DNA of 64,000 nucleotides from an uncultured archaeon (GTDB lineage Archaea; Asgardarchaeota; Lokiarchaeia; Sigyniarchaeales; SOKP01). This document shows, one piece after another, positions 29,519 through 60,942 of the stretch (the first letter of the stretch is position 1; every line of letters begins with the position of its first letter). The notes under the pieces were generated by a model. The model saw only the letters and a program-made list of their open reading frames with translations. It was not told where the DNA came from and searched no databases. Location: positions 1-64,000 of the forward strand of contig CAZGJX010000004.1 in NCBI GenBank assembly GCA_964525635.1. The letters are read 5' to 3'. Position numbers and translations under genes: made by a program.

Positions 29519-30234
29519 CTGAAATATTGAGTAATTTTTCTATTATTTAATTCCTCATTTAATATTCTTTTTGTTGTTTCCCATGATTTCCTAGCAAATG
29601 GAGGAACATCCTTATGATTTTTTATCCATTCTCGTAAAAAATGGATTGTTTTTTTATCTGAAGTATAACCAGAACCTAAATCACTATAACCAAGATTGAG
29701 ATATTTTTCTCTAAGATCATTAATTATAGTATCTCTTTTATTCTTTGCAATTATTGAAGCAGCAGAGACTATAGGAAATAGATCATCTGCTTTATGTTTC
29801 GAAATGATTTGTTTTGGATGATAAGATAAGAGTTTTTTTATTGATTTTCCAAATCTAGTTTCATCTACATCTGCGGCATCAATATAAATAATATCTGGTT
29901 TTAAATCATTAATTATTTCCACCATTTTAAGAATTTCAAGTTTATTTAAAGAAAGATTCTTTAATATCCTATTATCGATTTCTTGAGATGAAACTTGTGT
30001 TTCTTTAAAACAAACGCAATTTTCTTTTATTAACTTAGCTAAAATTTCTCTTTTTCTTGATGTTAGTTTTTTAGAATCTTTAACACCAATGTTATATAAA
30101 TAATCAAGATTAGTATATGGAAAACATACACCACATAACACCATAGGACCTAAAACGGGGCCTTTCGGGCAAAAAAGCGAATTACTTTTTCAACTCCCGG
30201 CCTCATCAATTCCACATATTAGATGATCATCCAT
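29515..30234 (-). CDS. rnhB: ribonuclease HII, split by an intron (exons 30234-30194 and 30163-29515; 229 aa spliced)
   Basis: Exon 1 reads MDDHLICGIDEAG; the splice gives AG+A = Arg, then GPVLGPMV; downstream GVKDSKKL, IDAAD, HKAD, VSAASIIAK, GSGY. Confidence 0.93.
30164..30193 (-). other. 30-nt BHB mRNA intron in rnhB
   Basis: CGGG|AG^T|TGAAAAAG-loop-CTTTTTTG|CCCG|AA^A; contains an in-frame TGA. Confidence 0.85.
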
Positions 30235-58126: not shown

Positions 58127-58553
58127 ACCTATTATCCTCTATTATTTGGTAATATCATAAATATTTCAACCAAAAAGAGTATCTAGAGAAATAAATCACT
58201 CCTAAAAAATTTTATGATGATTGATAGTAAAATCTTGGATATTTTAACATTTGTTTTCATGAAATAATATGCCAGTTTCAACATCAATATGCACCACACT
58301 ACCCAATTAATATTAAAAGTATGGTTATATTTAGAAAATTTCTATCTCTTAGAAATTTTTTATCCTCTATCTTATAGGTTTTTTTTAGAGAAGGAATAAG
58401 ATGTTATATTTAAAAAAAAAGGAAAAATAAAAGAATCAGAGTAATAGAATGAACTAGAAAAATATTTAAGATTTAGCTTCTTTTATTTAATTAGCTATTT
58501 TTGTGAAATAAAACAATTATTTAATTCAATAAATCAAAAATTAGGTGATAGAT

Positions 58554-59168
58554 ATAGGTAGACGAAAGAGAAAACAACAAACTTATAAGAGGATTAAAAA
58601 GTTACCTAAGATTTTCACTTGCCCACAATGATATTTGGATTTACCAAATATTGAGGAATGTGGTGAGAAATCTGTTAAAGTTGAAAATGTTAAAAAACAA
58701 AATGGGTTTGCAAAAGTGAAATGTGGTCATTGTAGTTTGGAAAAGGAAGTATTAATTAATTCGATTTCAGAACCTGTTGATGCTTTTGGTGATTTTATTG
58801 ATATTTACTATGCTGATACTGAACTTCAGAGATTGGAAAAGGGTATTTCTAAATTAAAAGAAAATAATGAATGGGGAGAACTTGGTTTAGCTTATTCTTT
58901 ATTATCGAATTTATGCAGAATTAAAGCCGCTCAACTTTTAGAAGAAGAGGAGGATGTTGATATGAATGAAGTTACTGAATGGAAAACTAAGGGGGAAAAA
59001 TATAAAAGATTAGAAAAGGATGCTTTATTAAAATTAGAAACTGAAGAATTAGAAGAAGGGATCAAAACTGATGAAGACTCTTTATTTTCAGAACATGATG
59101 AAAGTGATATTCGTAAAAAGCGTGATATTGAAGATGTTTTCGAAGATCCAGGTTTTTTAGAATTTTAA
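58554..59168 (+). CDS. elf1: transcription elongation factor Elf1 with C-terminal extension, split by a 30-nt insert (194 aa spliced)
   Basis: (M)GRRKRK..KKLPKIFTCPQ^CGEKSVKV..AKVKCGHCSL..EPVDAFGDFIDIY; ATA start after AGGTGA. Confidence 0.88.
58628..58657 (+). other. 30-nt putative relaxed-BHB mRNA intron in elf1
   Basis: Hairpin ATATTTGG-ATTTA-CCAAATAT; candidate bulges CA^A and GA^A; in-frame TGA; exact ends ambiguous because of the AATG direct repeat. Confidence 0.7.
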
Positions 59169-59187
59169 TTATATTACCTTTTATTAA

Positions 59188-60942
59188 TTATTTAGAATTG
59201 GTAAAAAGTATTTTCTTTATATCATTAGGAATATGTTTCCATATTGACAGATTTAAAATAAAATCAAAGATTTCGTGTTTATTTAATCCTTTATTAATAA
59301 TATAAAATGCCCAGTTATTAAATGCTAATTTATTAAAATATTTAATTAAGTTTAAACCAATTAAATTATATTTTGAGGTTAAAAATTTCGCTAAATATGC
59401 CCATATTAATCTTTTCGGTGGAATTGCTTCCGGATAAACTGATTCTGATAAGGGTCTAGAGAATATTTCATAAATAGCAATAATTGGTATCAGTTGTATT
59501 ATATATTTTTTTATTATTTCTTTATAATTTTCTTTTTCTGGGGGAATATCATTAATTTTATTAAGTGTATTGGTAGCATATTTAAAAAAACGTTCTTTAA
59601 AGAATAGCCACATTTTAGCCATTTTATTTCTCAATCCTTTAAAATCTTTTATTAAATCCTTATCTTTGAATTCAAAATCCTCCTTTTCTTCATATAATTC
59701 TATAAAAGTAAGAAAAATAGATTCTGTTGATTTAATTTCATATTCAAATTCATCTAAATTTACAAGTTTTTTGGGAAAATCAAGAATTTTCATAATTTTT
59801 GAAGGTTCATGTATTGTATGAGAATAAAGAGGTGTATTCCATAGTAATTCTTTTAATTTTTCGATTAAGTGTTTATTTTTATGACTTTTTTCAATTTTAT
59901 TGTATTTTATTGGTGTATTTTTTTTTAGAATTGGTAGTTTATTTGATTGATAAAGACGGAATTTTATTTTTTCAATAAATGATAAAGATCTAATCAGATT
60001 CTTACGCTTATTTTTATAAAATAATAATTTTTTATTAAGTAGTTGATTTAGATCCAATATACTTTTGATATATTTATAGAAATCAATTTCAAATTCTTCT
60101 TTTATAAATTCATTATCTATCATTGGTATTTCTAATATGTAATCTATATTCTTATTTATAATACTCATAGCATGATCTCCAATACTATAGGAAAATGTTA
60201 TTTTTTTTAATAGTTCATCCAATGATGAGAATTTACCAAGTATTTTTGATTCATTTGTAAAATAACCATGTACCAATGTATCAATTCCTTTATATACATT
60301 ATTTTTATATTCCGAAATAATAACAGATTCAAATTCCCCTGGATGATGTCGTTTCATATTAAACCTACTTTCTAATCGAAAGATTAATATATTAATCCAA
60401 TGAGATATTTTATAAATCCACTTAAACAATGGATTTAAATATTTAATGAATTTAGGTCTATAACCATAGAAATATGGATGGAAAAAAATCGGAAATCCAA
60501 GACCTCGTGAAGTAGAGAAAATAAATTGAAAAATATGCCTTGTTTCCTCTCCTTTTTGAAATCCAGGAAATTTAAAATGAAATACAACTTGAGGATATAA
60601 AGCATCTATTCCTAAAGTCATCCATGCACTAAAAAGAATAATACTATCAGGGAATCTAAAAGATTTCTTTTTACTAATAAAATCTTCATTTATTTTACTC
60701 AATAGTGAAGGTATACTAAAAAGCCAATCTTTATCATTTTTTATTACTTTTAATTCTTCTCGAAATTTATTTAAAATAGTTGGTTTAATTTGTTCTTGAA
60801 TTTTTTTTTTTTTATAATAAAAATTATTTATAACTCTAATTAATGATAAAATTTCCAAGATTTGCCGATTTAAATCATGTGTTACTTTTATCTTATTTTT
60901 CGTTTCGAAGAGATAATGTTTAGATGACAATGGATTCCTCAA
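59188..60942 (-). CDS. hypothetical protein
   Basis: 584-aa ORF; no family recognised. Confidence 0.7.
   Translation of the reverse strand: MRNPLSSKHYLFETKNKIKVTHDLNRQILEILSLIRVINNFYYKKKKIQEQIKPTILNKFREELKVIKNDKDWLFSIPSLLSKINEDFISKKKSFRFPDSIILFSAWMTLGIDALYPQVVFHFKFPGFQKGEETRHIFQFIFSTSRGLGFPIFFHPYFYGYRPKFIKYLNPLFKWIYKISHWINILIFRLESRFNMKRHHPGEFESVIISEYKNNVYKGIDTLVHGYFTNESKILGKFSSLDELLKKITFSYSIGDHAMSIINKNIDYILEIPMIDNEFIKEEFEIDFYKYIKSILDLNQLLNKKLLFYKNKRKNLIRSLSFIEKIKFRLYQSNKLPILKKNTPIKYNKIEKSHKNKHLIEKLKELLWNTPLYSHTIHEPSKIMKILDFPKKLVNLDEFEYEIKSTESIFLTFIELYEEKEDFEFKDKDLIKDFKGLRNKMAKMWLFFKERFFKYATNTLNKINDIPPEKENYKEIIKKYIIQLIPIIAIYEIFSRPLSESVYPEAIPPKRLIWAYLAKFLTSKYNLIGLNLIKYFNKLAFNNWAFYIINKGLNKHEIFDFILNLSIWKHIPNDIKKILFTNSK

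Follow-up and report, generated by a model that had tools for sequence, protein, structure and literature searches.

We analysed a 64,000-nucleotide (nt) stretch of DNA from an uncultured archaeon of the Lokiarchaeia (order Sigyniarchaeales; assembly GCA_964525635.1, contig CAZGJX010000004.1, positions 1 to 64,000 of the forward strand), hereafter called the window. The coding region for the transcription elongation factor Elf1 (58545-59168, forward strand) is interrupted by a TGA codon directly past the codons for Cys-Pro-Gln in the first zinc knuckle of the protein. The Elf1 open reading frame matched the Pfam family Zn_ribbon_Elf1 (PF05129) across the break (2.2e-14, residues 5-89), with a score of 53.7 bits against a curated cut-off of 29.8 and with 78 of the 79 profile positions covered (1-78). 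Family membership is borne out by the basic N-terminus, the C4 zinc ribbon and the score above the cut-off, and the orthologues carry the source name "transcription elongation factor Elf1." The gene is present in a single copy in this genome and in three congeners. The annotated proteins correspond to the downstream open reading frame alone, with a length of 177 amino acids here (P0001) and 159-162 amino acids in relatives. As described below, the interruption is most probably an archaeal bulge-helix-bulge (BHB) mini-intron within the protein-coding part of this single-copy gene, which would be spliced from the mRNA.

The insert was pointed out in an earlier reading of the letters and open reading frames (the sequence-only reading), which quoted its context as TGC CCA CA/ATGATATTTGGATTTACCAAATATTGAGGA/A TGT GGT, with 30 nt at 58628-58657 splitting the first CxxC motif. 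The quoted string is exact, and the TGA is in frame (58629-58631). It is the sole stop codon within the insert of this genome, and the length of 30 nt keeps the reading frame. Removal of the 30 nt yields CPQCGEK, as encoded by intron-less orthologues. The perfect 8-base-pair (bp) hairpin described in that reading is also present (58631-58638 with 58644-58651) and extends to 9 bp with a G58630.U58652 wobble. A58628 is the same base as A58658, and AATG is repeated at both ends of the insert (58627-58630 and 58657-58660), so that five boundary pairs yield one identical spliced product in this genome.

Distribution of the insert among relatives

The first 102 codons of Elf1 were searched against 40 relatives and then against 135 genomes of the family, from which all loci with stop codons or a change of frame were collected for comparison of the inserts. 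In total, 39 interrupted Elf1 loci (38 distinct) were identified in four genera of one family, all of them interrupted at one shared site. They comprise all four species of this genus (g1), 16 loci in genus g2, at least 18 in genus g11 and one in genus g5. The insert is 30 nt long and located at the identical place in the four species of the genus, although its stop codons differ between them: the inserts of G001 and G003 read NLIDLL-stop-NED, while that of G002 reads stop-SLDIP-stop-NED.

The distance between the two cysteine codons is 37, 39, 40 or 41 nt in the interrupted loci, as compared to 9 nt in uninterrupted genes, which gives insert lengths of 28, 30, 31 or 32 nt. Across the family, the stops are TGA, TAA or TAG and the frame is often shifted; translation through the insert can thus not explain the family as a whole. 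The CPxCGEK motif is uninterrupted in the other family genomes examined and in nine translated orthologues from the sister family. An independent metagenome contig (L084) carries an insert identical to the G003 allele and adds no new variation. An assembly artefact, named in the sequence-only reading as a possible refutation, is contradicted by the recurrence of the insert in four species, 35 further family loci and this contig.

The exact spliced-junction pattern of this genus had no match in the metagenome contig collection, and no full-length protein more than 90% identical to Elf1 from this genus was found in the protein database, only truncated entries of 159-177 amino acids. Two database proteins, P0064 and P0082, match the in silico spliced products of loci L062 and L076, respectively. 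P0064 is located on a 22-kb intron-less contig of a metagenome-assembled genome (MAG), that is, on DNA, and P0082 is from a different species with 82% DNA identity. One genome, G065, contains one intron-bearing and one intron-less copy of Elf1 (contigs C94 and C171), but its contamination is about 9% and it may be a mix of strains. Genus g8 (G010, G020, G041-G043) has two tandem Elf1-like matches inside one open frame of 253-261 amino acids.

Covariation supports a bulge-helix-bulge structure

Six registers of a helix-bulge-helix-bulge-helix structure were scored on the 38 distinct alleles (152 cells per helix; the inner helix h' was represented by the first four hairpin pairs). The best register pairs 147 of the 152 cells in the outer helix h, 119 in the central helix H and 122 in h', as compared to at most 115, 56 and 94 for the five others. 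It places the 5' cut at the end of the codon that follows Pro and the 3' cut directly before TGY (Table 1). The central helix CCCA/UGAG with bulges CAA and GAA, as drawn in the sequence-only reading, pairs in 46 of the 152 cells, versus the 119 for CCAC/GAGG with bulges AAU and AAU. The insert boundaries of that reading give the identical spliced sequence in this genome, but the register supported by the alleles lies one base further 3' (58629-58658). The description of the motif as a relaxed BHB also needs revision, since the corrected register sets the flanking helices against the bulges and makes the motif near canonical. The outer helix in this genome consists of 4 bp, three of which are G.U, and adjoins the bulge, as does h' (an hBHBh' arrangement). 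The predicted spliced junction is CAA/UGU, in the context TGCCCACAA/TGTGGTGAG.

An alignment of the inserts with their flanks (A1) was made with MAFFT, and the structure was scored for pairing and covariation, with partners slid by one to three columns and shuffled data as controls. In A1, 87.2% of the cells are paired, as compared to 33-44% with slid partners. Compensatory changes, in which both sides of a pair differ, were observed in 11 of the 17 pairs, and the covariation score is 0.396, as compared to 0.05-0.11 for slid partners and 0.164 for shuffled data (none of 500 shuffles reaches 0.396). The outer helix is paired in 96.5% of the cells. In h', 87% of the cells are paired and all nine pairs change on both sides. 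Two pairs of the central helix (17/49 and 18/48 of A1) show compensatory changes, namely AU/UA/GC and GC/AU/CG: in pairs with the intron, the third position of the Pro codon (a synonymous site) shows A-U, U-A or G-C, and the first position of the codon after Pro shows C-G, A-U or G-C. These covarying central-helix pairs appear to be the most telling structural evidence. A perfect 4-bp central helix is present in alleles L051-L056 and L058. The alignment of orthologues, a check suggested in the sequence-only reading, thus found a homologous insert at the same site with a covarying structure.

Each of the two predicted splice sites is covered by one copy of a direct repeat, AATG in this genome and GAATG in the g11 alleles (L059-L076). 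It arises from the two similar AAU bulges, each of which is followed by G or U. The repeat leaves the boundaries ambiguous when they are judged by sequence only, and it resembles a pair of take-off and landing codons.

Table 1. Coordinates of the Elf1 exons, the predicted intron and the elements of the predicted BHB motif in the window.
Feature	Start	End	Strand	Remarks
Elf1 exon 1	58545	58628	+	Basic N-terminus GRRKRK... to Cys-Pro-Gln of the first zinc knuckle; dN of exon 1 0.017-0.052 within the genus
Outer helix h, 5' strand (UUGC)	58619	58622	+	Pairs with 58660-58663: C22-G60, G21.U61, U20.G62, U19.G63
Central helix H, exon strand (CCAC)	58623	58626	+	C58623-G58656, C58624-G58655, A58625.A58654 mismatch, C58626-G58653
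5' bulge AAU	58627	58629	+	Predicted EndA cut 58628/58629 (second/third bulge nucleotide)
Predicted intron, 30 nt (UGAUAUUUGGAUUUACCAAAUAUUGAGGAA)	58629	58658	+	In-frame UGA at 58629-58631
Intron hairpin h'	58630	58652	+	9 bp, 58630-58638 with 58644-58652, first pair G.U; loop AUUUA (58639-58643)
Central helix H, intron strand (GAGG)	58653	58656	+	Register test and alignment
3' bulge AAU	58657	58659	+	Predicted cut 58658/58659
Elf1 exon 2	58659	59168	+	Second Cys of the first knuckle (CGEK...), remaining zinc ribbon, EPVDAFGDFID block, acidic C-terminal extension to DPGFLEF; stop codon included
Outer helix h, 3' strand (GUGG)	58660	58663	+	Register test and alignment

Another 30-nt insert was observed in the RNase HII gene of the window (approximately 30163-30234, reverse strand), between GAT GAG GCC GGG AG and A GGC CCC. 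Its removal restores DEAG/RGP, and the insert contains an 8-bp hairpin and a BHB-like CGGG/CCCG helix.

Frame restoration and selection on the exons

In silico splicing was performed at the predicted cuts in the 39 loci. It opens the frame and restores CPxCGEK in all of them, whatever the length of the insert (28-32 nt). In the four full-length loci, the spliced frame comprises 194 codons and reaches the conserved C-terminus DPGFLEF. Judging from these sequences, only removal at the RNA level would restore the Elf1 protein across the family. The conserved site, the compensatory structure and the frame restoration in 39 loci thereby support the proposal, already put forward in the sequence-only reading, that a BHB-type intron is spliced from the Elf1 mRNA.

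Within the genus, the ratio of nonsynonymous to synonymous substitution rates (dN/dS) is 0.04-0.07; for exon 1 taken alone, dN is low (Table 1) and dS is saturated. Sequence identities are 80-86% for the exons and 57-70% for the intron. These rates (dN/dS about 0.04 for the exons) indicate strong purifying selection on exon 1 as well as exon 2, which together with the single copy and the restored frame rules out a decaying pseudogene.

The start codon of Elf1 is uncertain. An ATA codon (58554-56) is located just before GRRKRK, where the orthologues have ATG, TTG, GTG or CTG. An alternative start is the in-frame GTG at 58545, 9 nt upstream of the ATA, which overlaps a Shine-Dalgarno-like AGGTGA. 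In this order, Elf1 is approximately 192-207 amino acids long, roughly double the usual archaeal length (window 58830-59168; orthologues L010-L038). The C-terminal extension is acidic and probably helical, and ends in the conserved DPGFLEF (D[PTK]GFLE[FWL]).

Splicing enzymes and a proposed mechanism

Two EndA paralogues, each about 200 amino acids long and composed of N-terminal and catalytic domains, are encoded in the genome (on contigs C18, 102 bits, and C105, 68 bits), along with one RtcB ligase (554 bits). When compared to a two-repeat EndA model, one paralogue fits the second repeat and the other fits the first. Such a pair would fit a broad-specificity enzyme built from two subunits. 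A set of two EndA paralogues, in keeping with an (alpha-beta)2 enzyme, has been found in 44 of 60 Asgard genomes (preprint 10.64898/2026.10.13.758758), and in Crenarchaeota the hetero-oligomeric type of EndA cleaves relaxed motifs outside tRNA (PMC2738675).

According to the model that we propose, the Elf1 pre-mRNA would fold locally, bringing CCAC of exon 1 together with GAGG close to the 3' end of the insert. The resulting 4-bp central helix would be flanked on opposite strands by AAU bulges and, beyond these, by a 4-bp exon-exon helix and the 9-bp intron hairpin. EndA would cut between the second and third nucleotide of each bulge (at 58628/58629 and 58658/58659), and RtcB would ligate the exon ends, probably also closing the 30-nt intron into a circle. 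From the mature mRNA, an Elf1 protein of approximately 194 amino acids would then be made, its C4 zinc ribbon (CPQCGEK) unbroken.

Alternative explanations

Several observations weigh against splicing through a BHB motif. The central helix is mismatched in all four species of the genus (A.A; G.A in G003). For the isolated RNA, the nearest-neighbour model gives -5.9 kcal/mol for the BHB fold and -17.1 kcal/mol for the most stable fold, and local folding is no better than that of shuffled sequences (z = -1.41). Since the spacing of the two cysteine codons defined the length of the insert, the register test is partly dependent on the reading frame. Site conservation, covarying structure, frame restoration, selection on the exons and the enzyme genes are established here; from these we infer cleavage, ligation and their timing relative to translation. 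A motif that is stabilised by protein need not be the minimum-energy fold, and the significance of the structure derives from the comparative data; thermodynamic folding was not used as support.

Four other explanations of the insert were considered. A broken gene, either a pseudogene or a split gene that gives a 28-amino-acid peptide and a separate 177-amino-acid protein from the TTG at 58635, would agree with the gene callers, which report the downstream open reading frame alone, and with the presence of that in-frame TTG inside the insert of this genome. We consider it very unlikely in view of the dN/dS values of both exons and the lack of any other Elf1 copy in the genome. The start and frame of exon 1 are kept in 39 of 39 loci, in the sister species no start codon lies in frame between the intron stop and CGEK, and zinc could not be bound by a knuckle whose two cysteines had been separated. 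It is highly improbable that the ribosome instead bypasses the insert, as in T4 gene 60, by leaving at the codon before it and landing just before UGU or UGC. All alleles have a hairpin downstream of the take-off site, and the g11 alleles have GAA as take-off codon, followed by UGA and the hairpin, with an identical GAA before the resume codon. However, the take-off and landing codons are unmatched in this genus (CAA versus GAA or GAU) and in g2 (AAU or AAC versus GAU), and no stop follows the take-off codon in G001 and G003. Bypassing does not require the observed covariation of exon 1 with the 3' end of the insert, and the repeat is accounted for by the two similar AAU bulges.

A small DNA element, resembling a miniature inverted-repeat transposable element with AATG as target-site duplication, could be invoked from the AATG at both ends and the palindromic core. 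Yet the core is found a single time in the genome (4.45 Mb), where other matches have three mismatches and look like chance, and the insert diverges with its host gene while keeping its pairing to the exon sequence. With the insert found in independent assemblies as well as in a metagenome contig, we regard such an element, or an assembly or sequencing artefact, as exceedingly unlikely. Selenocysteine at the UGA (CPQU), suggested as an alternative in the sequence-only reading, or readthrough, would add 10 residues, encoded by the 30 nt, to the zinc knuckle. The insert is in frame here with TGA as its only stop, and the genome encodes SepSecS (379 bits, G000 contig C50:10329-11486). We nevertheless give this explanation virtually no credence, since the inserts of the three sister species bear TAA or TAG at other positions, the TGA is not conserved, and the 28-, 31- and 32-nt inserts of other genera shift the frame. 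Moreover, the intron-less orthologues have no residue at the UGA position, the insert evolves as paired RNA and not as codons, and the authentic second cysteine is positioned after it. An Rfam scan of 58300-59500 gave nothing resembling a selenocysteine insertion sequence at E <= 1 (one chance snoRNA-like match was obtained), although Rfam may not cover the archaeal form of this element. The SepSecS match suggests that the organism has a selenocysteine pathway, though not one used at the Elf1 TGA.

Evolutionary history of the probable Elf1 intron

On a tree of Elf1 proteins with 68 rows, at least 8-10 changes of intron state are required, a number that is indicative only because the sample of intron-less sequences is incomplete. 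The hairpin apex GG-A-U-U-x-CC is shared across the alleles, and its closing G-C pair is nearly invariant in A1. Based on the shared site and the shared apex, we favour one origin within the family, probably followed by repeated precise losses, over repeated gain at the same site.

The intron-bearing locus L062 (G075:C6) and the intron-less locus L082 (the MAG contig at NCBI that encodes P0064) are approximately 99% identical in the DNA of exon 2, but the identity falls to about 85% in exon 1, and no alignment is possible upstream. This drop in identity places a recombination breakpoint at or beside the intron site, and hints that intron loss or gain may travel with recombination. A broader reading, which we hold tentatively and rate slightly below an even chance, is that the Elf1 intron belongs to a population of EndA-type mini-introns of about 30 nt that have colonised protein-coding genes in this family of Lokiarchaeia, with gain, precise loss and exchange through recombination all taking place among close relatives.

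Comparison to known introns and implications

The closest counterpart is the pre-mRNA intron in the cbf5 gene of Crenarchaeota, which was reportedly described by Watanabe in 2002 and by Yoshinari in 2006. The gene encodes an aCBF5/dyskerin-type pseudouridine synthase. The cbf5 intron has a size of 16-44 bp, is cut between the second and third bulge residue, and has been linked to the hetero-oligomeric EndA; its patchy distribution among close relatives implies gain and loss (Yokobori 2009, PMC2738675). The Elf1 insert is similarly a short intron inside a protein-coding sequence (28-32 nt), with predicted borders between the second and third bulge residues, a patchy distribution and a lineage whose EndA is probably hetero-oligomeric. 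It differs in its host gene, which encodes a eukaryote-type transcription elongation factor, and in its phylum, Asgard archaea of the Lokiarchaeia/Promethearchaeota type. Moreover, most cbf5 motifs have been described as unconventional, whereas many Elf1 alleles have a canonical hBHBh' motif, with one mismatch in this genome. Splicing of cbf5 has been shown by cDNA and in vitro cleavage, whereas for Elf1 we infer it.

The BHB introns of archaeal tRNA and rRNA genes, of which there are many in Asgard tRNAs (preprint 10.64898/2026.10.13.758758), share with the Elf1 insert the two 3-nt bulges on opposite strands of a 4-bp helix, with one cut per bulge, the similar size and the same enzymes, including the two EndA paralogues. 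The Elf1 intron resides in an mRNA, however, so that splicing has to take place before translation or in competition with it, and a failure to splice would lead to a truncated protein. In addition, codons constrain the exon strand of the Elf1 motif.

In eukaryotes, the mRNAs of HAC1 and XBP1 contain a short intron that is cut by Ire1 in small stem-loops, after which the exons are ligated by tRNA ligase or RtcB. As proposed for Elf1, this is a short mRNA intron of a transcription-related factor that is removed without the spliceosome and joined by a tRNA-splicing ligase. The nuclease is Ire1 and not EndA/Sen, the RNA motif is another one, and HAC1 and XBP1 splicing is stress-regulated. The resemblance is a mechanistic analogy rather than membership in the same system. 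The link between RtcB and XBP1 is mentioned in PMC8718801.

No report of BHB introns in protein-coding genes of Asgard archaea was found in the literature searched, and the preprint on Asgard tRNA introns (10.64898/2026.10.13.758758) does not treat mRNAs. Within that literature, protein-coding BHB introns were confined to one gene, cbf5, in Crenarchaeota. To judge from the comparative data, Elf1 is very probably the second, well-supported case.

Standard gene callers truncate genes of this type, here to proteins of 177, 162 and 159 amino acids, which means that Asgard proteomes and tables of gene presence and absence are wrong at such introns. The Elf1 insert also provides a directly testable substrate for an Asgard EndA. 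The presence of the intron in a eukaryote-signature factor in dozens of Asgard genomes, with repeated loss or gain, suggests that mRNA splicing by EndA and RtcB is normal in this lineage, which bears on the pre-eukaryotic origin of split genes and mRNA splicing. If there is indeed a population of mini-introns, the closest archaeal relatives of eukaryotes would routinely express core information-processing genes, among them that of a eukaryote-type transcription elongation factor, via mRNA splicing with the tRNA-splicing machinery, and splicing could serve as a control point for the supply of Elf1.
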